A stretch of 26,274 bases of DNA from a virus. The DNA is taken from UHGV virus genome UHGV-0174150; one strand, given 5' to 3'. How positions within the stretch are numbered: the first letter of the stretch is position 1; each line of letters opens with the position of its first letter. Made by a program: the position numbers and the translations under genes. Of this stretch, positions 1,974-25,964 are shown one piece after another. The notes beneath the pieces were generated by a model that ran no database searches, was not told the DNA's origin, and saw only the letters and a list, made by a program, of their open reading frames with translations.

Positions 1974-3008
1974 TCAAGCATCGCCTAATTTATATTCGTC
2001 AAAACGAATAATTTCGTCATTAAGCCATTCATTTAATTCCATTAATCTTTTTTGAAGTGGAATCAATTCATTACGAACGAATACTCGACTAGCTTTTTCC
2101 ACGTCTCCAAACCCACCAACGTTGCTCGGCATAATTCCCATCATCTGCGGTGGCACGCGGTGCGCTGCCATCATGTCATCGCGGCTAACGTTCTTGATGT
2201 TAAGAAACTCGTCTTTCGCCGCAACCTCTGATAACGGGATGATCTGGATGCCGTCCTTTTTGCCGTTGGGCGAATACATAAACAGGTTGCGGAAGTTACC
2301 CGGTCCTTTGGCGCTTTTCATTGCCTGACGGATATTGTTCACATCCTCCTGGTTCTGTGCTGCGTCGGTCATGTACATAATGAAACCTGCGTGGCTGCCG
2401 TTGATGTAATACTTCCGGCGAAACAGCGTTGCGGACTCGTTGAGCAGGGTTGACGGGATGGCGGAGAGATAGCCTGGCAGCCCGTAAATCTCCTGGTTAA
2501 TATCCGGCTCCAGCAGATGAAAGATGCTGCCCTGCGTAAATTCATAGGGCTGCGTGGTCATGCCATACTGCACAAACCAGTAGGTATCCAGGTCTAATCC
2601 ACGTCGGGTGTATTTTGCCAGGGCAGGCTCAAGGGCGATAACTTCACCGAATCGGTTCGTGCGTTTCTCCAGGTAGGCGTTACCAAATACCAGATAGTCC
2701 TGCACAAAACGCGAAAAAGCCTGCTGGCTGAGCAGCGGATGAGGGATATAGGTACTGGTCAGAATGTTGCACTTTACTGCAATCGGGGAACTGTGATGCA
2801 CGGCGGCGCGGAAGGTGCGCGCCAGTCCGTCAAAGCTGACGGGCGGCTCATACCAACGGTCCATCTGTACGCATTCCACATAGTCCAGCAGTTCACGGCG
2901 GTCCAGAACAGGAACGGGATCGCCGAAGCTGAATGCTTCGGCTGTAGTTTGACTTTTAAGCTGGATCTGTTTCGTCGCCGCAGCTCGGTTCTTCTTACTC
3001 TTTCCCAT
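1974..3008 (-). CDS. Q: portal protein (P2 Q-like)
   Basis: 344-aa ORF whose position and length match P2 gpQ. Start ATG overlaps the P stop (ATGA coupling); the ORF track extends 1 codon further to a TTG. Confidence 0.9.
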   Translation of the reverse strand: MGKSKKNRAAATKQIQLKSQTTAEAFSFGDPVPVLDRRELLDYVECVQMDRWYEPPVSFDGLARTFRAAVHHSSPIAVKCNILTSTYIPHPLLSQQAFSRFVQDYLVFGNAYLEKRTNRFGEVIALEPALAKYTRRGLDLDTYWFVQYGMTTQPYEFTQGSIFHLLEPDINQEIYGLPGYLSAIPSTLLNESATLFRRKYYINGSHAGFIMYMTDAAQNQEDVNNIRQAMKSAKGPGNFRNLFMYSPNGKKDGIQIIPLSEVAAKDEFLNIKNVSRDDMMAAHRVPPQMMGIMPSNVGGFGDVEKASRVFVRNELIPLQKRLMELNEWLNDEIIRFDEYKLGDA

Positions 3009-4774
3009 CAAAAAATCTCCACAATATTGCTGGTATTGGCGGATTCGCCCTGCAGCGGTTCGTTAAACAGTGCGTGCATCGTTGCCCATGCCAGATCGGC
3101 GTGGCTGGCTTCTTCGCTGCGGCTGGCTTCATAGGTCGGGCGGTTGCCACTGGCGGTGGTGGTGCGACGGATTGCCATAAATGACTGCGCAATGTCGGTA
3201 TGTCCGGCGTCAAACTCCAGACGGCGGTGGCTGATAATGTCGTAGGCCTTGAGTACCAGGGCGTTTTTAACGTTGGGGTTGTAGACAAACTCCCGGACGG
3301 CAGGAAAGAACGCTTTCACGTTCTCGTAAACCCCGTGACCAACGCCGGTTGAGTCGATGCCGATGTAGGTCACGTTGTACTGCTCGGTCAGTTTTTTGAT
3401 TGCGTCAGCCTGGGCGCGGAAGTCCATCCCGCGCCACTGGTGACGCTCAAGAATGCGAAACTTACCGCCCGGCACGGCTGGCGGTGCCACCACCACGCAT
3501 CCGGCGCTGTCGCCGTTCTGCGTACCTTTTGCCGGGTCATAACCGATCCACACTTCGCGCCAGCCAAACGGGCGCAGGGCCAGAGCATGAAAGTCGGTCC
3601 AGACTTCCCAGCTGTCCACCATGCACGCCTGCAGCTCGCTGAGCGGGAACACGGACGCGAGATCGTCCACGAACTCGCACATCAGCAGGTTCTGGTATTC
3701 GTCCGGGCTGTACTCCATGCGCAACTGGTCAAGGTCGAACAGGTTACAGCCGCCGCGCACCGCATCTTCCACGGTGACTATCTGGCGGTATTGCCCGTCT
3801 GCGCACAGCAGGCCGGGGGCCAGATTGCTATGGGACAGGTCGATGTCCACCTTGTCGGCTTTGTTGCGTCCACGGTTGAACAGTGCACCGGACCAGAACG
3901 GATAAGCACTGTGGGTCAGGCTGGATGGCGTGGAAAAATAGGTTTGTCGCCATTTTTTGTGAATAGCCATACCGGAAGCCACTTTGCGCAGCTCCTGGAA
4001 TTTCGGTATCCAGAAATATTCATCCAGATACAGGTTGCCGTGGTAACTCTGGGTCGTGCCGCCAATGGTCTCGAGGAAGTATAGAGTGGCCCCCTAGGGA
4101 AGCTACATCGGTGCGCCTTTCAGCTCCACCTCCACTTCTTTGGCGAAGTCGATGATGTACTGTTTAAAGACGTGGGCCTGTGCCTTACTGGCGGAAAGGA
4201 AAATCTGGTTACGTCCGGTAAGCAGGGCGTCAATCAGGGCTTCACGGGCAAAGTAAAAGGTCGCGCCGATCTGGCGTGACTTCAGCAGGTTGCGGATGCG
4301 GTTGGCTTTTCCGGCTTCCCTCCAGTGGCGCTGGTAGTTGAACATGGAGGAATGGAAGATTTCTTCCAGCTTCTCAATCTGCTCATCGGTGAAAACATTC
4401 TTTTCCGGCTGACGGCGCGGGCCTTTGTTGCGGTTGGCGACGTTAGGGTTTAAGTCGGCTTCGTTGCCGCCATTGTTAAACTTGCTGATCCGCGCGTGGC
4501 GCTCCGACTGGCGCGCCAGCAGGTCAATCTCTTTGAAATCTTTCCCTTCTTTGTGCTCCTTCATAATGAGCTGGCAGTAGCGTGCGGCGGTGGTGAGCTG
4601 CATCTGATCCAGCGGCCCATAGTCACCCCACTTGTCGCGTTTTTTCCAGCTGTGAACGGTTGCAACTTTCTCGCCCAGCATTTCAGCAATGCGGGCTACG
4701 CGGTATCCCTGAAAGTACAGCAGCATGGCCTGCCGACGGGGATCGAGATCTGCGGGTGTCAGTGTGGTGTTCAT
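3008..4774 (-). pseudogene. P: terminase large subunit (P2 P-like), single frame interrupted by two in-frame TAG codons at 4103-4105 and 4094-4096
   Basis: ORFs 4103-4774 (N-terminal part) and 3008-3982 (C-terminal part) are in the same frame. Reading through gives ...KGAPM*LP*GATLYFLETIGG... with no other stop; total 589 codons, about P2 gpP size. Neighbouring residues align to P2 P as recalled from memory. Confidence 0.85.
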
Positions 4775-4820
4775 GGCACAAACCTACAGCCTTGAATGAA
4801 GGCTTTCCCCGCCTGCGGTT

Positions 4821-4838
4821 TGTGTGGTTGTCGGTACA
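4821..4838. promoter_or_regulatory. TGT-N12-ACA dyad; putative Ogr-dependent late promoter element in the P/O divergent intergenic region
   Basis: TGTgtggttgtcggtACA read directly. Centre is about 87 bp upstream of the O start, compatible with a -55 activator site plus about 30-nt leader. P2 late promoters are known to carry TGT-N12-ACA near -55. Confidence 0.45.
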
Positions 4839-4916
4839 AATACCGCGCATTGTTTCACTGCCCCCATCACCGCAACCATAAGGATCCAGTAAGTTTTTTC
4901 TAATGGAGCACGGCTC

Positions 4917-5750
4917 ATGACAGTGAAAGCAAAGCGTTTTCGCATCGGGGTGGAAGGTGCCACCACCGACGGACGCGAAATCCAGCGTGAATGGCTGGAA
5001 CAGATGGCAGCCAGCTACAACCCGGCGGTGTATACCGCGCTGATTAACCTTGAGCACATCAAGTCTTATCTACCGGACAGCACCTTTAACCGCTACGGCA
5101 AGGTGACGGCGCTGTTTGCTGAAGAAATCACGGAAGGTCCGCTGGCAGGCAAGATGGCGCTGTATGCCGACGTTGAGCCAACGGAGTCCCTGGTGGAACT
5201 GGTGAAAAAAGGCCAGAAATTATTCACCTCTATGGAAGTCAGCCCGAAGTTCGCTGATACGGGCAAAGCCTACCTGGTCGGCCTGGCTGCCACTGATGAC
5301 CCTGCCAGTCTGGGTACGGAAATGCTGACATTCAGCGCCAGTGCAGCCCATAACCCGCTGGCAAACCGCAAGCAGAATCCTGCCAATCTCTTTACCGCTG
5401 CAGAGGAAACGGTGATCGAACTGGAAGAAATCCAGGACGACAAACCGTCCCTGTTTGCCCGCGTCACGGCGCTGTTTACCAAAAAAGAGCAGTCCGATGA
5501 CGCCCGGTTCTCTGATGTGCATAAGGCCGTGGAGCTGGTCGCCACTGAGCAGCAGAACCTGAACGCACGCACCGAAAAATCCCTGTCTGAGCAGGAAGAA
5601 CGCCTGTCTGAGCTGGAGACTGCCCTGCAGGCACAGCAAACCGCCTTTAACGAACTGGTGGACAAGCTGAGTCATGAAGACAGCCGCCAGGACTACCGCC
5701 AGCGTGCAACAGGCGGTAACGCCCCCGCTGACACTCTGACCAATTGCTGA
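4917..5750 (+). CDS. O: capsid scaffolding protein (P2 O-like)
   Basis: 277 aa; synteny; similar to P2 gpO, including motifs FRIGVEG and YLVGLAATDDPASLGTE (from memory). Confidence 0.9.
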   Translation: MTVKAKRFRIGVEGATTDGREIQREWLEQMAASYNPAVYTALINLEHIKSYLPDSTFNRYGKVTALFAEEITEGPLAGKMALYADVEPTESLVELVKKGQKLFTSMEVSPKFADTGKAYLVGLAATDDPASLGTEMLTFSASAAHNPLANRKQNPANLFTAAEETVIELEEIQDDKPSLFARVTALFTKKEQSDDARFSDVHKAVELVATEQQNLNARTEKSLSEQEERLSELETALQAQQTAFNELVDKLSHEDSRQDYRQRATGGNAPADTLTNC

Positions 5751-12622: not shown

Positions 12623-13220
12623 TCTGCTGCCACCGGGTTCAACTTCACTGGAGCGCCGACTGGCGCAAACCTGCAGCGGGATTTCTGATCTGCAGGTGCC
12701 GCTTCGTGACTTGTGGAATCCGGCAACCTGTCCGGTCAGTTTCCTGCCTTATCTCGCCTGGGCGTTCTCTGTGGATCGCTGGGACGAGGGCTGGACAGAA
12801 AGCGTCAAACGCCAGGTAGTGAAGGATGCTTTTTATATTCATCAGCACAAAGGAACCACCAGTGCCGTACGGCGGGTGGTGGAGCCGTTCGGCTTCCTGA
12901 TCCGCATTATTGAGTGGTGGCAGACCGGAGAAACACCGGGCACGTTTCGCCTGGATATCGGCGTGCAGGACCAGGGCATCACTGAAGATACCTATCTGGA
13001 ACTTGAGCGGCTGATAAGCGATGCCAAACCATGTAGCCGTCACATGATCGGCATGTCCATCAATCTGCAGACCAGCGGTCCGCATTGGGTGGGGGCCGCC
13101 AGCTATCTTGGCGAAGAAATCACGATCTATCCGTATATCAACGAAACAATTATTTCCGGCGGCACCGCGCATGAAGGCGGGGCGGTCCATGTTATTGACA
13201 CAATGAGAGTGAATCCATGA
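12615..13220 (+). CDS. I: baseplate protein (P2 I-like)
   Basis: 201 aa; synteny between J and H. Confidence 0.8.
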   Translation: MNSLLPPGSTSLERRLAQTCSGISDLQVPLRDLWNPATCPVSFLPYLAWAFSVDRWDEGWTESVKRQVVKDAFYIHQHKGTTSAVRRVVEPFGFLIRIIEWWQTGETPGTFRLDIGVQDQGITEDTYLELERLISDAKPCSRHMIGMSINLQTSGPHWVGAASYLGEEITIYPYINETIISGGTAHEGGAVHVIDTMRVNP

Positions 13221-15580
13221 GCACAAAATTTTATACCCTGCTGACGGATATTGGCGCGGCGAAACTTGCCAGCGCCGCCGCGATCGGTGTGCCGCTAAAA
13301 ATTACCCATATGGCGGTGGGCGATGGCGGCGGAGCATTGCCGACGCCGGACGCAAAGCAGACGGCACTGGTAAATGAGAAACGCCGGGCTGCGCTGAATA
13401 TGCTCTATATCGACCCGCAGAACAGCAGCCAGATTATTGCTGAACAGGTGATCCCTGAAAATGAGGGTGGTTGGTGGATACGTGAAGTGGGTCTGTTTGA
13501 TGAGTCCGGGGCATTGATTGCCGTGGGCAACTGCCCGGAAAGCTATAAGCCGCAACTGGCTGAAGGCAGCGGGCGTACCCAGACCGTGCGCATGGTGCTG
13601 ATTACCAGCAGCACGGACAATATCACCCTGAAAATCGACCCTGCTGTAGTGCTGGCAACCCGCAAGTATGTGGATGACAAGGCACTGGAGCTGAAGGTGT
13701 ACGTGGATGACCTGATGGCAAAACATCTTGCCGCGCCGGACCCGCATTCACAGTATGCACCCAAAGAAAGTCCAACGTTTACCGGAACCCCCAAAGCGCC
13801 AACGCCAGCGGCGGGGAATAATACCACGCAGCTTGCGACCACCGCGTTTGTACAGGCGGCACTGACGGCCCTTATTAATGGTGCGCCAGCCACGCTGGAC
13901 ACGCTGAAAGAAATAGCCGCAGCCATTAACAATGATCCGAATTTCAGTACCACCATTAACAATGTGCTGGCACTAAAAGCACCGTTGTCGAGTCCGGCAC
14001 TCACCGGAACGCCAACAGCCCCCACGGCGGCACAGTCGGTCAACAATACACAGATTGCCACTACGGCTTTTGTGAAATCGGCGATTGCGGCAATGGTGGG
14101 TTCTGCACCTGCGGCACTGGATACACTGAACGAACTGGCGGCGGCGCTGGGGAATGACCCGAACTTTGCCACGACAATGCTTAATGCACTGGCAGGTAAA
14201 CAACCGCTGGACAATACGCTGACTAATTTGAGTGGAAAGGATGTAGCTGGTCTTCTCGCATACCTTGGTATTTCAGCGCCAGGCGGCGCAGGGTCAGTTG
14301 GATATAAATTAAATGCAGAGAATACAGTCTCACGAACTGCATACGATAATTTTTCTGACCGAATTAATGCCGGAGACTTTGGTATTAAGGGTGATGGGAT
14401 AGCTGATAATGCTGCTGCGATAACCAAGGCATGTGCTGCATTGCAGAAACTGTACGAAATTGATGGAATCCGTCGCACATTGGTATTTACAGATGGGTCA
14501 TATCGCACATCGGCCACAATTGTTGTTCATGCAAATATGCTTATTCATTGCGAGGGGGGGGTTGTATTCCAGAATATCGGGGCAGTAAAAACCTTTGCAG
14601 CGGTGGAGCTTCAGGGCGGATCCAAGAAAAGCGTACTCGGCACTATGGACGGGTACGGTAGCGCCATCCTCATCAGGGGTAGCACTCATACTGTCGAATT
14701 TCAGACAATCAGTAACTGCGTAGATGGGGTGATTTTCAGGGCTGACAACAACTGGGCATCCACGAAAAGCAGCCTGGATAATGTGGTTCGTGGTGTTCAA
14801 ATTGGCAAATGTACTAACGCTATCGTGTTTGAGCAGAACGCTAATAATCTTGTGCAACAGGGCAATGAAGTTCGTGTCAACTTTGTGTCTGAAACCCCTA
14901 ACACACTGCTTTTCAGAAACTTCGATGGATTTGTCCACACAGAGGAATCTAACTGGGATAGTAACTTCGTAGAGCTGATAGCGAGTGACCCAATAACGCT
15001 GCCAGATTCATCTATGGCTAGGAACTCTACCCCCCATAGCGTATCAAACCTGACAATGGCGGTTAAATCATGGTGCGGAGGTTGGGTGCCCGATGCAGGC
15101 TCCATGTGCCTGATTAGAGGTGCGTTCAGTACCAGTACGTTCGAGTTCAATCTGGCCCAACGAGTAGGCTTAAACGAGGTTGTGGATGCCGTCGGCGTTA
15201 ATTCATTTGGTTCGTGTATTTTACGAAATACTCGTTATGAGAATTTAGGTAATTCAATATCTTATATCGGCGTTACTACTGGCGCTGAGTTCAATAGTGG
15301 TTTAGCCCTTTTCCGTAGTAAGTTCCGAGTCAGATTTACCGTGGTACCTCTGGCCGCAGGCCAAACGTACGGACTGTCTTTTAAGCATGTGCTGAGCCAG
15401 CGCTCAAATACAGGCAGGATGCGGATCGTACAATACTCGGATACAGCCAGGGGCAAGCTCTTGATTGAGGTTCGTGATGCGGGTACTGAGACGCAGGGCC
15501 TGGTGCGGGTGTGGTTCACAAATTTAACTCAGACAACTACGTCCACAATGGACGTAGAAATTATTTTTGAAGCTGAATAA
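13217..15580 (+). CDS. H: tail fibre / tailspike, mosaic: P2 H-like N-terminal half joined to an AT-rich C-terminal module with a pectate-lyase-superfamily-like motif
   Basis: N-terminal roughly 335 aa match P2 gpH including the NSPALTGTP...NDPNFATTM...AGKQP repeat region. After about nt 14220 composition turns AT-rich and the protein carries DFGIKGDGIADNAAAI, like the start of beta-helix depolymerase tailspikes. Confidence 0.85.
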   Translation: MSTKFYTLLTDIGAAKLASAAAIGVPLKITHMAVGDGGGALPTPDAKQTALVNEKRRAALNMLYIDPQNSSQIIAEQVIPENEGGWWIREVGLFDESGALIAVGNCPESYKPQLAEGSGRTQTVRMVLITSSTDNITLKIDPAVVLATRKYVDDKALELKVYVDDLMAKHLAAPDPHSQYAPKESPTFTGTPKAPTPAAGNNTTQLATTAFVQAALTALINGAPATLDTLKEIAAAINNDPNFSTTINNVLALKAPLSSPALTGTPTAPTAAQSVNNTQIATTAFVKSAIAAMVGSAPAALDTLNELAAALGNDPNFATTMLNALAGKQPLDNTLTNLSGKDVAGLLAYLGISAPGGAGSVGYKLNAENTVSRTAYDNFSDRINAGDFGIKGDGIADNAAAITKACAALQKLYEIDGIRRTLVFTDGSYRTSATIVVHANMLIHCEGGVVFQNIGAVKTFAAVELQGGSKKSVLGTMDGYGSAILIRGSTHTVEFQTISNCVDGVIFRADNNWASTKSSLDNVVRGVQIGKCTNAIVFEQNANNLVQQGNEVRVNFVSETPNTLLFRNFDGFVHTEESNWDSNFVELIASDPITLPDSSMARNSTPHSVSNLTMAVKSWCGGWVPDAGSMCLIRGAFSTSTFEFNLAQRVGLNEVVDAVGVNSFGSCILRNTRYENLGNSISYIGVTTGAEFNSGLALFRSKFRVRFTVVPLAAGQTYGLSFKHVLSQRSNTGRMRIVQYSDTARGKLLIEVRDAGTETQGLVRVWFTNLTQTTTSTMDVEIIFEAE
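13769..14215 (+). repeat. two tandem ~74-codon tail-fibre repeat units inside H
   Basis: SPTFTGTPKAPT...NDPNFSTTINNVLALKAPL directly followed by SPALTGTPTAPT...NDPNFATTMLNALAGKQPL; unit boundaries approximate. Confidence 0.55.
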
Positions 15581-15589
15581 GGGTCACCA

Positions 15590-15817
15590 ATGACACTGGA
15601 AGAATTAAAAGCCGACAAAGCTGAAACACTGGCAAAAGCGAATGCATTGACATCATACATTCAGTCAGATGATTTTCATCTGGCTGGGCATAGCCCAGCT
15701 GAGCAGCATTACATGAAAAAGCGGGAGGCGGCATTGCTGGAATATCATATGCAACTGACCCACCAAATCGCAGTGATTGAAAACCCATCCGGCGTGCCAC
15801 TCACTCTCACTGAATAA
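15590..15817 (+). CDS. hypothetical small protein (75 aa) at the position of the P2 tail-fibre assembly gene G; possibly a chaperone remnant
   Basis: Starts 9 nt after the H stop; AT-rich; much shorter than P2 G (about 175 aa); only vague resemblance to Tfa C-termini. Confidence 0.4.
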   Translation: MTLEELKADKAETLAKANALTSYIQSDDFHLAGHSPAEQHYMKKREAALLEYHMQLTHQIAVIENPSGVPLTLTE

Positions 15818-15863
15818 TGTGCGAACATTCGACCATTAATGGAACCTAACGGAGAAGTTTAAC

Positions 15864-16163
15864 GTGGATATATCCCCATTTCTTCATACTTGTGCCGCTG
15901 TACTTATCCAAGCGTTTTTTGGTTACTTTTTTGGTAGGTGGGGGTATGGCGGCATTATTGGCTGCGTGTGGTTTATTGCTCGTGAACAAACGCAGGCTGA
16001 ATATCGATGGATAGCCGAGTTCGGCCACGGAAAGCGGATCAACATGCCGTGGTGGGGAGGTTTCGATATCAGGGTGTGGAATGTTGGAAGCATGCTTGAT
16101 TTCCTGGTGCCGGTAATAGTCTGTTCCCTGGTGTATGCCTGCGTGGTGTATCGGCAGGCATAG
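15864..16163 (+). CDS. hypothetical Trp/Gly-rich small membrane protein (99 aa)
   Basis: GTG start with GGAGAAG 6 nt upstream; hydrophobic N- and C-terminal segments. A 126-codon antisense ORF (15846-16226) overlaps it fully and I judge that one less likely. Confidence 0.4.
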   Translation: MDISPFLHTCAAVLIQAFFGYFFGRWGYGGIIGCVWFIAREQTQAEYRWIAEFGHGKRINMPWWGGFDIRVWNVGSMLDFLVPVIVCSLVYACVVYRQA

Positions 16164-16247
16164 CGTCATGATAATCACCAATCGAACGTTTAAGAAAATG
16201 AAGAGATAACGGCTAACTGGCATCATTTCCGGTTTCTATTCAGGGGG

Positions 16248-16820
16248 ATGATCATGCTTATTGGATATGTACGCGTGTCAACAAATGACCAGAACACCGA
16301 TTTGCAACGCAATGCGCTGAACTGCGCGGGATGTGAGCGGATTTTTGAGGATAAAATCAGTGGCACTAAGTCCGACAGACCGGGGCTGAAAAAACTGCTC
16401 AGGACACTATCGGCAGGAGACACGCTGGTTGTCTGGAAGCTGGACAGGTTGGGGCGCAGTATGCGGCATCTTGTTACGCTGATAGAGGAGTTGCGCCAGC
16501 GTGGTGTGAATTTCCGAAGCCTGACTGACAGTATTGATACCAGTACCCCAATGGGCCGTTTCTTTTTTCATGTCATGGGTGCCCTGGCTGAAATGGAACG
16601 CGAACTGATAGTTGAACGTACCAGGGCAGGGCTGGCTGCAGCTCGTGCCAAAGGCAGAGTAGGTGGACGCCGTCCTAAGTTGACCACCGAACAGTGGGCA
16701 CAGATTGGGCGTTTACTCGAGGCCGGAGAATCAAGACAGCGTATTGCACTGATTTTTGATGTGGGTGTTTCCACAATTTATAGAAAATTTCCGGCAAATA
16801 AGAGTAATGAATCCCCCTGA
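16248..16820 (+). CDS. serine recombinase, Hin/Gin/Pin/Cin-family DNA invertase
   Basis: N-terminal LIGYVRVSTNDQ..DLQ catalytic motif, VVWKLDRLGRS, MGRFFFHVMGALAEMERELIVERT, and C-terminal HTH (GVSTIYRKF). Probable true start is the ATG at 16254 (MLIGY). Confidence 0.9.
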   Translation: MIMLIGYVRVSTNDQNTDLQRNALNCAGCERIFEDKISGTKSDRPGLKKLLRTLSAGDTLVVWKLDRLGRSMRHLVTLIEELRQRGVNFRSLTDSIDTSTPMGRFFFHVMGALAEMERELIVERTRAGLAAARAKGRVGGRRPKLTTEQWAQIGRLLEAGESRQRIALIFDVGVSTIYRKFPANKSNESP

Positions 16821-16868
16821 ATCAGCATTATTTTGATTATCCCTGCAAGCAGACAAATACCGTCATTT

Positions 16869-16886
16869 TGTGTGAATAACGGTACA
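16869..16886. promoter_or_regulatory. TGT-N12-ACA dyad upstream of FI; putative Ogr-dependent late promoter element
   Basis: TGTgtgaataacggtACA read directly, very similar to the P/O-region site (TGTGTG...CGGTACA). Centre about 85 bp upstream of the FI ATG, followed by a CAGGAGG Shine-Dalgarno. Confidence 0.45.
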
Positions 16887-16962
16887 ACTGCGCTTAGCTG
16901 TTTGTCAGGCACAATCACTTCAACATAGGGCGAAGCCTAATCCAATCAGGAGGTTCGCCACT

Positions 16963-18135
16963 ATGGCTCAGGATTACCACCACGGGGTGCGCGTTGTTGA
17001 AGTCAACGAAGGCACCCGATCCATTACCACGGTGAGCACCGCCATCGTGGGCATGGTCTGCACGGGCGATGATGCCGATGCAAAAATGTTTCCTCTTAAC
17101 AAACCTGTGCTGATCACTGATGTGCTGACTGCCAGCGGTAAAGCGGGTGAGTCCGGCACGCTGGCCCGTTCGCTGGATGCCATCGCTGACCAGGCAAAAC
17201 CCGTGACCGTTGTTGTGCGTGTGCCGCAGGGTGAAACGGAAGAAGAAACCACGACCAATATCATCGGCGCAGTGACTGCTGAAGGTAAAAAAACAGGCAT
17301 GAAAGCTCTGTTATCTGCCCAGTCACAGCTCGGCGTTAAACCGCGCATTCTCGGCGTGCCAGGTCACGATAACAAAGCCGTTGCGACTGAGTTGCTGAGC
17401 GTGGCGCAAAGCCTGCGTGGGTTTGCTTACCTGTCAGCGTATGGCTGCAAGACGGTACAGGAGGCGATCACTTACCGTGAAAACTTCAGCCAGCGCGAAG
17501 GAATGCTGATCTGGCCCGACTTTACTGGCTGGGACACGGTGCTGAATGCCGAAGCAACGGCATATGCCACCGCCCGTGCACTTGGTCTGCGTGCCAAAAT
17601 TGATGAGCAGACCGGGTGGCACAAAAGCCTGTCCAACGTGGGCGTGAACGGTGTCACCGGAATTTCTGCAGATGTGTTCTGGGATCTGCAGGACCCGGCA
17701 ACCGATGCAGGTCTGCTGAACCAGAACGACGTCACCACGCTTGTGCGTAAAGACGGTTTCCGCTTCTGGGGTTCCCGCTGTCTGAGCGATGATCCGCTTT
17801 TTGCCTTCGAAAACTACACCCGCACGGCGCAGGTGCTGACGGACACAATGGCAGAAGCACACATGTGGGCGGTGGATAAACCGCTTAACCCGTCGCTGGC
17901 CCGCGACATTATCGAAGGTATCCGCGCCAAAATACGCAGCCTGGTCAGTCAGGGCTATCTCATTGGTGGTGATTGCTGGCTGGATGAGTCGGTGAACGAC
18001 AAAGACACGCTGAAAGCCGGAAAACTCACCATCGACTATGACTACACGCCAGTGCCGCCACTTGAAAATCTGATGCTGCGCCAGCGCATCACCGATCAGT
18101 ACCTGGTGAATTTTGCCAGCCAGGTCAGCGCGTAA
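16963..18135 (+). CDS. FI: contractile tail sheath protein (P2 FI-like)
   Basis: 390 aa; strong similarity to P2 gpFI along its length (DYHHGV...EGTR...[10 protein letters not shown]...[12 protein letters not shown]), from memory. Confidence 0.92.
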
Positions 18136-22637: not shown

Positions 22638-23734
22638 ATTTCAGCTCTGAACTGCTTAACAAAGGCAACAAAACTCCGGCATTCAGCATCAGTATTGAAG
22701 GCAGGGATATCACCACTGTGCTGGACAACCGCCTGATGGGGCTGACGCTGACGGATAACCGGGGCTTTGAAGCGGACCAGCTTGATCTGGAGCTGGACGA
22801 CGCCGATGGAAAAATCGTGCTGCCGCGCCGTGGTGCGGTCATTACGCTGGCGCTGGGCTGGAAGGGGCAGCCGCTTTTCCCGAAAGGGGCATTCACGGTG
22901 GACGAGATTGAACACACTGGCGCACCGGACCGCCTGACTATCCGGGCGCGAAGTGCTGATTTTCGTGAAACGCTGAATACCCGTCGTGAAAAGACGTGGC
23001 ACAAGACCACCGTTGGGGAAGTGGTGAAGGAAATAGCTGCGCGGCACAAACTGAAGATGGCACTGGGTAAAGACCTGTCAGATAAACCCGTGGAACATAT
23101 AGACCAGACCAATGAGAGTGACGGCAGTTTTCTGATGCGGCTGGCGCGACAGTACGGTGCCATCGCGTCGGTGAAAAATGGCAATCTGTTATTCATCCGG
23201 CAGGGACAGGGCAAAAGCGCCAGCGGTAAACCTCTGCCGGTGATCACTATCACACGCAAGGACGGCGACAGTCACCGCTTTACCCTGGCAGATCGCGGAG
23301 CCTATACGGGCGTAATTGCCAGCTGGTTGCATACCCGCGAACCCGCGAAGAAAGAAAGCACTACGGTGAAGCGTAAGCGCAGGACTAAGAAGCAGAAGAA
23401 AGAGCCGGAAGCGAAGCAGGGCGATTACCTGGTGGGGACGGATGAAAACGTGCTGGTACTTAATCGCACTTATGCCAACCGGAGCAACGCCGAACGAGCG
23501 GCAAAAATGCAGTGGGAACGCCTGCAACGCGGCGTTGCGTCATTCTCGCTACAACTGGCGGAAGGGCGGGCAGATCTCTACACGGAAATGCCTGTGAAGG
23601 TCAGTGGTTTTAAACAGCCGATAGATGATGCGGAATGGACCATTACGACTCTGACACATACCGTCAGCCCGGATAACGGTTTTACGACCAGTCTGGAGCT
23701 TGAAGTGAAGATTGATGATTTCGAAATGGAATGA
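22634..23734 (+). CDS. D: tail protein / late control protein (P2 D-like)
   Basis: 366 aa; GTG start overlapping U stop; motifs LDDADGK, TWHKTT, HIDQTNESD match P2 gpD (from memory). Confidence 0.85.
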   Translation: MNFSSELLNKGNKTPAFSISIEGRDITTVLDNRLMGLTLTDNRGFEADQLDLELDDADGKIVLPRRGAVITLALGWKGQPLFPKGAFTVDEIEHTGAPDRLTIRARSADFRETLNTRREKTWHKTTVGEVVKEIAARHKLKMALGKDLSDKPVEHIDQTNESDGSFLMRLARQYGAIASVKNGNLLFIRQGQGKSASGKPLPVITITRKDGDSHRFTLADRGAYTGVIASWLHTREPAKKESTTVKRKRRTKKQKKEPEAKQGDYLVGTDENVLVLNRTYANRSNAERAAKMQWERLQRGVASFSLQLAEGRADLYTEMPVKVSGFKQPIDDAEWTITTLTHTVSPDNGFTTSLELEVKIDDFEME

Positions 23735-24278: not shown

Positions 24279-25964
24279 TTATCCTAATCCTGGCCATACC
24301 ATGACGATGATTGTCCCTGCCAGCGTCAGCAGGACGTTGGCGATTGCATAGGTGCCCGCATAGCCCAGCGCCGGGATGTTACTGCGAGCTGTATCACTGA
24401 TGATCTCCATTGCCGGCGCGCAGGTACGTGCGCCCATCATTGCGCCGAACAACAGCGCGCGGTTCATTCGCAATACATAAGCACCGAACAAGAAACAGAT
24501 AACCACGGGCACCAGACTGACAATCAATCCGGCAATCAACATCTGACCGCCAATCGCGCCCAGGCCGTTATTAATACCGCTACCGGCGCTCAGACCAACG
24601 CCTGCCATAAACACCATCAAGCCGAACTCTTTCACCATGCTTAATGCACCCTGCGGAATGTAACCGAAGGTCGGGTGGTTAGCACGCATAAAGCCCAGCA
24701 TAATTCCGGCGAATAACAACCCGGCAGCGTTCCCCATGCCGAAACTGAATGTGCTGAACTGGAAGGTGATCATCCCGATCATCAGCCCAATAACAAAGAA
24801 GGCGCAGAATGCCAGCAGGTCAGTGACCTGGCTGTGAATCGAGATAAAGCCGATGCGATCGGCGATGGTTTTTACGCGGCGGGCATCGCCGCTGACTTGT
24901 AAAACGTCACCTTTGTTAAGCACGACGTTGTCATCTATCGGCATCTCAATCTGGCTACGAATGACGCGGTTAAGGAAGCAACCGTGATCGGTCAACTTCA
25001 GTTGTGCGAGACGTTTACCTACAGCGTTATGGTTTTTAACGACCACTTCTTCAGTGACGATACGCATGTCGAGAAGGTCACGATCGAAAACTTCTTTACC
25101 GTTACGGAAGCTGGGATCGAGTCGGGCATGGGCGTCGGGATAGCCTACCAACGCTATTTCATCGCCCATTTGTAGCACGGCATCACCGTCTGGATTTGCC
25201 AGAATCCCGTTACGTCGAATACGTTCAATGTAGCAGCCGGTTTGTCGATAAATACCCAGTTCACGCAGATTTTTGCCGTCGGTCCAGGCCACCAGTTCCG
25301 GGCCGACGCGATAGGCGCGGATCACCGGTAAATAAACCTTACGGTTGGCATCAGTGTCCAGGCCACGTTCGCGGGCGATTTGCTGGGCGCTGGTCTGTAA
25401 GTCCTGATGCTGCAATTTCGGCAAGTAACGCGCACCAACAATCAAACTCACCAGACCGATTAAATAGGTTAAGGCATACCCGAGGCTCAGATTATCCAGT
25501 GCCAGTGAGAGCTGCCTGCTTTCCATGCCGGAATGACGCAGTGTATCGCCAGCACCGACCAGAACCGGTGTCGACGTCATAGAGCCTGCTAACATACCGG
25601 CCGTCAGGCCAATATCCCAGCCAAACAGCTTACCTAACCCTAAGGCGATCACCAGCGCACTGCTAACCATCACCAGTGCTAGCATTAGGTAATTTTTCCC
25701 ATCGCGAAAAAAAATGGAAAAAAAGTTCGGTCCGGCTTCGACCCCGACGCAGAAAATAAACAGCATAAAGCCAAGATTAAGCGCATCGGTGTTAATGCTG
25801 AAATCTTGTTGGCCTAATAACAGCGATACGACTAAAACGCCAATGGAATTACCCAGTTGGATCGAACCAAGTCGTAACTTTCCGAGACATAGCCCAAGCG
25901 CGAGGACCACAAATAATAACAGAATGTAATTCCCATTTAACAATTCGGCGACGTTTATATTCAC
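24279..25964 (-). CDS. ybjL: AAE-family putative transporter (YbjL/YidE-like), host chromosomal gene
   Basis: 561-aa multi-TMD protein with a central soluble region; I recognise it as enterobacterial YbjL from memory, not from a search. GC and codon usage host-like. Confidence 0.85.

Follow-up and report, generated by a model that had tools for sequence, protein, structure and literature searches.

In the virus genome UHGV-0174150, the stretch between the tail-fiber gene H and a serine DNA invertase gene carries two small open reading frames (ORFs) of 75 and 99 amino acids, orf75 and orf99, and a third ORF of 126 codons that covers orf99 on the opposite strand. This arrangement raises the question of whether the adjacent invertase turns the segment so that both strands are expressed, or whether the overlapping ORFs have another origin. 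A first-pass annotation of the 26,274-nt DNA (the window, to whose whole length all coordinates refer unless another genome is named) had considered that the two orientations could both be expressed and that orf99 may be a superinfection-exclusion or other accessory gene. Its description of the locus is correct, and the ORF list and the sequence place all three small ORFs where it had put them; its two-way proposal fares badly. The explanation that we consider probably correct as a whole is that the segment is a one-way cassette comprising a fiber tip and two passenger genes, which replaced an invertible fiber segment core to core and is now locked, with the antisense ORF as a shadow of orf99. 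The features on which the argument depends are the following.

13217..15580, + strand: H, tail-fiber gene of 787 aa, with a Phage_tail_fib N-terminal domain (E = 2e-64)
14253..14278, + strand: left hybrid crossover site, TTCTCGCATACC TT GGTATTTCAGCG, assigned from its equivalent in phage Cartapus
14267..16184, + strand: proposed one-way cassette of 1918 bp with fiber tip, orf75 and orf99, delimited by comparison with Cartapus and with other backbones
15590..15817, + strand: orf75, ATG start, AAGGG 6 nt 5' of the ATG
15846..16226, - strand: antisense ORF of 126 codons, covering orf99
15864..16163, + strand: orf99, GTG start, GGAG 9 nt 5' of the start
16173..16198, + strand: right hybrid crossover site, AATCACCAATCG AA CGTTTAAGAAAA, assigned from its Cartapus equivalent
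16248..16820, + strand: serine DNA invertase of the Gin/Cin/Hin type (Resolvase, E = 2e-53; HTH_7, E = 1.5e-15; phrog_125, E = 1e-101)
16963..18135, 3' of the invertase: FI, the sheath gene

The limits of the cassette are defined by comparison with phage Cartapus, an Elveevirus of the Peduoviridae. In a megablast search, similarity to Cartapus and ~1,250 complete genomes of E. coli starts sharply at 16178, ~70 bp 5' of the invertase, and the DNA to the left of this position was not found in any complete genome of E. coli or in any phage record. Colinearity with Cartapus at 97–99% DNA identity extends up to 14269 and is resumed from 16178. The interval between H and the invertase of Cartapus is a classical 1.5-kb invertible segment made up of H and G, followed on the opposite strand by G' and an alternative H tip, and flanked by the canonical 26-bp sites TTCTCGCATACC TT GGTTTGGGAGAA and TTCTCCCAAACC AA CGTTTATGAAAA, which lie within a 75-nt inverted repeat. 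Residues 1–352 of the window H are 98% identical to Cartapus H, after which the similarity stops; these residues represent the constant part belonging to the backbone, and residues ~351 to 787 come from the cassette. A search of 50,697 phage records gave no close relative of this distal part of H, the PDB gave no match to its sequence, and residues 383–523 give a weak pectate-lyase-like match. The cassette fiber tip is best described as a predicted β-helix, tailspike-like domain. Both crossover sites of the window are hybrids. In the left site the outer half and the core are those of the backbone and the inner half is degenerate and comes from the cassette, and in the right site a degenerate inner half from the cassette is joined to the core and outer half of the backbone. 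A consensus pattern that recovers both Cartapus sites at 0 mismatches finds the left window site at 3 and misses the right one at up to 3; it finds no further crossover site in the window, and no inverted repeat joins the two window sites. The comparison indicates that 14267–16184 replaced the invertible fiber segment of an Elveevirus-type P2-like prophage, core to core.

The same segment was found elsewhere. An exact-protein look-up of orf99 returned 24 contigs, and the contig comparison shows 10 places, which stand for 13 further similar contigs. Wherever the contig is not cut short (L014 ends within the cassette–invertase stretch), the fiber tip, orf75 and orf99 are present at identical spacing, followed by a resolvase-family invertase, all in one orientation. 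The backbone is of the Elveevirus type, like that of the window, in L005, L007, L008, L013 and L014; it is another P2-like backbone in L006, L009 and L012, a cryptic tail cluster beside priC and mscK in L010, and a Mu-like phage in L011. The cassettes of L005–L012 show 0–5 mismatches in 1917 bp, whereas their flanks are 17–34% identical without gaps, which is the random level. The sequence common to all six backbones is exactly TT-GGTATTT...CCAATCG-AA, from core to core. At the left junction L011 diverges at -1, and at the right junction L010 diverges at +1 and L006 at +2, with outer half-sites that are backbone-specific on both sides. These alignments place the same cassette in at least six unrelated phage backbones.

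The orientation of the cassette is equally uniform. In each of the 8 loci whose sequence includes the left junction, this junction is the forward one, and a single orientation was seen in every contig examined; the forward junctions read ...CATACCTTGGTATTTCAGCG and ...CCAATCGAACGTTTAAG, and inverted ones would read ...CATACCTTCGATTGGTGATT and ...GCTGAAATACCAACGTTTAAG. The window contains no alternative fiber tip, its minus strand carrying only the shadow ORF. A cassette-specific 24-mer had no copy in the IMG/VR and JGI metagenome contigs, which hence provide no orientation data, and a protein scan of genome contigs with one protein found two loci. The hybrid sites with degenerate inner halves, the lack of an alternative tip and the single orientation together indicate that the segment is locked and no longer inverts, and that the invertase has no usable target in the window. 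The invertase itself is intact, its DNA being 98.5% identical to that of Cartapus and many E. coli prophages (gene callers start it two codons later in L005, giving 188 aa). It is truncated in L006 (6390–6632, 80 aa) and L014 (889–1227, 112 aa), and in the Enterobacter contig L017 it is gone, with the site remnant AATCACCAATCG AA CGATTAAGAGAA kept at 5300–5340. The truncated and absent invertases would fit an enzyme that is decaying after the loss of its target.

A perfect 12-nt inverted repeat, ATTCAGGGGGAT / ATCCCCCTGAAT, at 16238–16249 and 16811–16822 brackets the invertase ORF of the window almost exactly, and its 5' arm contains the likely Shine-Dalgarno sequence of the gene. The repeat could be due to chance, with about 0.6 expected in 4.5 kb as a rough estimate, or could provide long-range pairing that limits invertase translation.

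The L017 cassette (2802–5303) is a mosaic in which both ends are nearly identical to the window and the center has diverged (fiber tip 65%, orf75 relative 44%). The first ~100 fiber-tip residues contain two substitutions relative to the window, and none was seen in the last ~65 residues of the membrane protein; what has diverged is the fiber head domain, together with the orf75 relative and the N-terminal part of the membrane protein. This pattern suggests that the center of the L017 cassette was replaced by homologous recombination.

Both passengers are genuine genes. For orf75, a homologue search returned only its own cluster, a tblastn search against phages gave no match, and there was no Pfam, NCBIfam, PHROG or PADLOC match. 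L017, an Enterobacter asburiae P2-like prophage, has a 71-aa ORF in the orf75 position that is 44% identical over 66 residues without gaps, and this gap-free relative shows that orf75 codes for protein. The AlphaFold2 model is a two-helix hairpin (helices 3–26 and 36–64; pLDDT 83), for which a fold search gave no specific match, and the protein is predicted to be small, soluble and particular to this cassette lineage. Kinship with the 92–93-aa ORFs that follow stf in lambdoid phages was considered and rejected, no BLAST match being obtained. Because orf75 varies together with the fiber tip, it more probably assists this particular tip than acts as an accessory gene in its own right. A terminator-like hairpin at 15537–15557, with a 9-bp stem followed by AAATTATTTT, lies just 5' of orf75, within the last codons of H.

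The product of orf99 is Trp/Gly-rich and membrane-protein-like, as had been described, 6 of its 99 residues being Trp and 11 Gly, with hydrophobic stretches at both ends. The homology and structure searches that the first-pass annotation had called for were fruitful in one respect, since they placed orf99 in phrog_1443 (E = 1.9e-41, residues 1–94 on profile positions 1–94 of 97), and yielded no functional family and no informative fold match. It is a full-length member of a family without assigned function, so that membership leaves its role unexplained. None of its 303 homologues is named or has a Pfam domain, a profile search of 1.84 billion representatives gave 397 clusters at 50% identity, and ten distant family members that were checked also had no Pfam domain. 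Searches with orf99 itself gave no Pfam or NCBIfam match, PDB sequence searches with the orf99 profile, the orf75 profile and the fiber tip gave nothing meaningful, and literature searches on the phrog_1443 protein family found nothing. In a 20-member alignment 32 residues are invariant and are concentrated in the motifs AREhTQAEYRWI and MPWWGG. AlphaFold2 models helices 4–23, 26–53 and 74–98 (pLDDT 92), and orf99 is on this basis predicted to be a three-helix inner-membrane protein. A holin or a signal-peptide protein was considered and rejected, as there is no family support and the N-terminus has no charged n-region.

Relatives of orf99 are found 3' of stf in phage 21 and other lambdoid phages, 3' of the tailspike gene and just 5' of the lysis cassette in the epsilon15-like Uetakevirus phiv142-3, and 3' of H or G in P2-like prophages, including ones without an invertase; in Pantoea L020 the start of the relative overlaps the stop of G. 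The fiber tips that they accompany are mutually unrelated. In the phage types seen, orf99 thus travels with fiber modules and always lies 3' of the last fiber-module gene. Two further settings are of a different kind. In the Aeromonas rivipollensis chromosome L019 (5001–5309), a 102-aa relative with 70% identity stands among housekeeping genes (pirin, RIO1 kinase and lipid A acyltransferases) without phage genes nearby, and the lytic Aeromonas jumbo phages AVP1, PS2, pAEv1810 and ACP1 (~235 kb) contain relatives of residues 36–92, the C-terminal two-thirds of orf99, at ~40% identity, so that the family extends beyond temperate phages.

The slot between the fiber genes and FI is the one that PMC13586616 names the Z/fun locus, and in the GenBank record of P2 it is occupied by fun(Z), a block to T5. 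The equivalence of position that had been claimed is thereby borne out, and so is the view of orf99 as an accessory gene of this slot, since relatives occupy it in Pantoea L020 (H-G-orf98-FI) and in L023 (H-orf101-FI), both of which have no invertase, among other P2-like prophages; to read orf99 as an accessory gene seems reasonable on this evidence. The resemblance to fun(Z) is limited to the slot. Fun(Z) of P2 has 528 aa and is encoded on the opposite strand behind the V-operon terminator, whereas orf99 is co-oriented with and coupled to the fiber genes, and BLASTP against Fun(Z) indicates no homology for either orf99 (E = 29) or orf75 (E = 1.5). Other exclusion genes lie beside or within tail and fiber modules and encode small envelope proteins, namely llp of T5, cor of phi80 and N15, and gp15 of HK97, with Llp and Cor being lipoproteins aimed at one receptor. 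With these orf99 shares its predicted nature as a small envelope protein and its position in a fiber module, but it has no sequence or fold similarity to them and accompanies unrelated fiber tips.

As to function, orf99 would be made together with the fiber genes and, from the inner membrane, would prevent further phage from entering a cell that is infected or lysogenic. Such an exclusion role at the envelope is our best guess and the least secure part of the explanation, and is put forward tentatively. Several observations weigh against it. The fold searches of orf99 gave no informative match and the PADLOC defense profiles no match at all, the stand-alone Aeromonas chromosomal gene fits prophage exclusion poorly, and the same applies to the partial relatives in lytic jumbo phages. 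As regards expression together with the fiber genes, the hairpin at 15537–15557 might attenuate read-through from H into orf75 and orf99, and no promoter-like site is predicted on the + strand in 15400–17000, leaving orf99 without a predicted promoter of its own.

That orf99 has a part in modifying the envelope or in the timing of lysis is about as probable. The more specific proposal that orf99 is an envelope-modifying or lysis-timing factor, acting through receptor masking or holin modulation and not as a block to DNA entry, seems rather doubtful when taken by itself. Its relatives adjoin receptor-binding genes in five phage types and in phiv142-3 lie just 5' of the lysis cassette, and the invariant polar residues D2, H8, Q16, R40, E41, E46, Y47, R48, R58 and D79 suggest a specific binding or catalytic site; there is, however, no similarity to known holins, to Gtr/Oac-type modification proteins or to any Pfam family, and a protein that accompanies unrelated fiber tips cannot be tuned to one receptor. 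It is unlikely, too, that orf75 and orf99 are both, instead of accessory or exclusion genes, morphogenetic helpers that fold or attach the tailspike-type fiber in place of the missing gpG/Tfa chaperone. A Caudo_TAP chaperone gene is indeed missing from the window, both ORFs are closely linked to H and share its orientation, the covariation of orf75 with the fiber tip would fit, and orf99 relatives lie directly 3' of fiber genes with translational coupling to G in L020. This proposal is countered by the unrelated tips beside orf99 relatives, by L020, where the relative coexists with a normal Tfa chaperone, by the relative that stands alone in the Aeromonas chromosome, and by the prediction that orf99 relatives are integral membrane proteins. 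Nor did orf75 or orf99 match any chaperone family in Pfam, NCBIfam or PHROG at E up to 1, which also disposes of a known tail-fiber chaperone, the identity that the first-pass annotation had named as fatal to its own view.

For the spread of the cassette to the window backbone and at least five others, we lean toward exchange at the 2-bp cores catalyzed by the invertase. The 26-bp site structure, strand exchange at the central dinucleotide and invertases acting in trans have been described for E. coli EC958 prophages (PMC4134206). Serine invertases make their staggered cut at this dinucleotide, and such a cut would be expected to leave half-site/core/half-site hybrids. A possible, speculative route is that two successive long-range inversions between the sites of co-resident prophages would swap segments, which would need only the inversion reaction. 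Two points count against catalysis by the invertase. The degenerate inner half-sites make such a transfer harder to explain, and serine invertases strongly prefer intramolecular inversion. The window sites resemble the hybrids of the Cin system. Iida and Hiestand-Nauer, whose work is cited in PMC4134206, reportedly obtained hybrid sites in 1986 and 1987 by Cin recombination between cix and quasi-cix sites, and the window sites likewise combine one consensus half-site and the core with a half-site little like the consensus, as would be expected once exchange with a secondary site has taken place. They differ in that both ends of a 1.9-kb segment are hybrid, and this in six backbones, known here from sequence alone.

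Alternatively, the cassette could have been spread by ordinary homologous or microhomology-mediated recombination, with the 26-bp sites serving as short patches of similarity. The outer half-sites are indeed similar between backbones at 7–10 of 12 positions, PMC3945230 documents relaxed recombination between phages and prophages, and the poor inner half-sites should disfavor binding of an invertase. The junctions are nevertheless difficult to reconcile with this route. On the right the AA core alone is common to all backbones, L010 and L006 departing immediately beyond it, and on the left the departure of L011 is just as abrupt; that illegitimate joining should have used the same 2 bp time and again, at either end and in six backbones, is very unlikely, and the structure of the hybrids is the one predicted for the staggered cut. 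Recombination of this kind is consequently an improbable account of the spread, and exchange at the cores by the invertase is preferred.

That the segment still inverts, with both strands expressed and the antisense ORF serving as an alternative C-terminus of H or as a separate product, is extremely improbable, since an intact adjoining invertase, TT and AA cores in inverted orientation with good outer halves, and an antisense frame that an inversion would fuse exactly to H are outweighed by degenerate inner half-sites without an inverted repeat, by one orientation in all contigs, by the absence of an H–antisense fusion protein among 5.8 billion protein clusters, and by an antisense frame that is equally open in relatives without an invertase and shows neither coding constraint nor a family match. 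The suggestion that both orientations are expressed thus finds no canonical inverted crossover sites to act on. A reservation about the locked state is that rare inversion at the hybrid sites may occur, the orientation being known from assembled contigs.

The antisense ORF has a simpler origin. Its codons are aligned with those of orf99, so that only TTA, CTA and TCA codons on the sense strand would stop the antisense frame, and the frame is open because orf99 happens to be without these codons. Given the amino acid sequence of orf99, with 5 Leu and 3 Ser, and the codon usage of the window, the probability of no antisense stop is 0.48. Of 13 genuine window genes, 12 have a codon-aligned antisense frame that stays open for 100 codons or more, and the ORF list of the window contains many antisense ORFs of at least 100 aa, the one opposite H reaching 324 aa. 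Among seven phrog_1443 members examined the corresponding frame is stop-free in four, three of them without a nearby invertase (phiv142-3, PhiR49_1 and Enterobacter L017). Substitutions relative to five orf99 relatives favor the third codon position of the + strand by ~2:1, and amino acid identity to four more distant relatives is 63–67% in the sense and 35–40% in the antisense frame. The antisense protein has no family match in Pfam, NCBIfam, PHROGs or PADLOC, and the 5.8 billion clusters contain a single homologue cluster, a 125-aa gene call on a 1952-bp contig. An overprinted gene was therefore ruled out on the basis of the open frame in relatives, the chance of 0.48 and the sense-strand substitution pattern.

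The part of the ORF that extends beyond orf99 reflects the history of the locus. Its first 14 codons are a conserved in-frame leader running from the invertase side into the crossover site, which the ORF passes in the reading frame used for alternative tips, and the second ATG, at 16223, is the annotated start of the Cartapus minus-strand fiber fragment; past the crossover site the antisense sequence is the mere complement of orf99. Core-to-core inversion carried out in silico places H(1–350) in frame with the last 112 antisense codons, giving 462 aa, and from this in-frame product it follows that the antisense frame was inherited from the ancestral switch. The ORF is thus a non-coding shadow of orf99 joined to the leader of a lost alternative fiber cassette, and the antiparallel pair, together with the two-way expression proposed for it, is an artifact of codon composition and an inherited reading frame.

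In Cartapus (L001, 5642–6046, - strand), the 'tail fiber protein' is annotated from an ATG that lies outside the invertible segment and is the same ATG as that of the window antisense ORF. This start is probably an annotation convenience, with the fragment normally expressed only once fused to H.

As in the Din-type segments (Mu G/Gin, P1 C/Cin and e14 P/Pin, and among P2-like phages EC958 Phi2 and Cartapus), a serine invertase lies directly downstream, one 26-bp site lies in the fiber gene at the constant/variable junction and a second beside the invertase, and the cores are TT and AA in inverted orientation (PMC4134206). The window differs in having one fiber tip without an alternative tip/chaperone pair, degenerate inner half-sites without an inverted repeat, two non-fiber passenger genes in place of the inverted alternative genes, and one orientation. 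Of four hallmarks of the type it thus retains the adjacent invertase and has lost the other three, consensus inverted sites, two opposed fiber C-termini and occurrence in both orientations. The shared architecture indicates descent from a Din-type fiber inversion system. What is new here is a concrete cassette that has identical core-to-core limits in six backbones, carries passenger genes and is locked, and next to which invertases are decaying.

Elsewhere in the window, two + strand ORFs at 308–1936, of 256 aa (with an HTH_3 motif) and 282 aa (no family), lie directly 5' of the portal gene (1974–3011, - strand). This cos-proximal position is the defense hotspot of P2-like phages that PMC9122126 describes; no convincing PADLOC match was found for either ORF, and they may be cargo of a kind not yet known. 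At 24279–25964 (- strand) a 561-aa Asp-Al_Ex/TrkA_C transporter looks like a host gene; if it is one, the prophage would have its right end upstream of this gene and beyond the D gene, which ends at 23734.

Tail-fiber inversion is a textbook case of programmed host-range switching, and the present locus is a clean natural example of site-based segment acquisition. Crossover sites were proposed long ago as a means to acquire fiber segments, a proposal of Sandmeier (1994) that is cited in PMC4134206; literature searches on core-to-core cassette exchange found nothing. A broader reading, which we consider to have an even chance of being right, is that Din crossover sites act as docking points, where a one-way fiber cassette with passengers would be moved core to core and the resulting hybrid sites would lock the cassette and strand the invertase, with the corollary that the phrog_1443 membrane protein would be a hitch-hiker of fiber modules with a new, envelope-level exclusion function. 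This reading spans unrelated contractile-tail backbones, comprising three or more P2-like lineages, a Mu-like phage and a cryptic tail cluster. For annotation, the lesson is that long antisense ORFs near invertases need evidence before being called alternative products. The phrog_1443 proteins constitute a widespread, unnamed membrane-protein family that follows fiber genes in three phage types, and are a target for functional work. If confirmed, the exchange would show by what means host-range modules and their passengers pass from one phage family to another in the absence of sequence homology, and how a switch that was reversible comes to be fixed.

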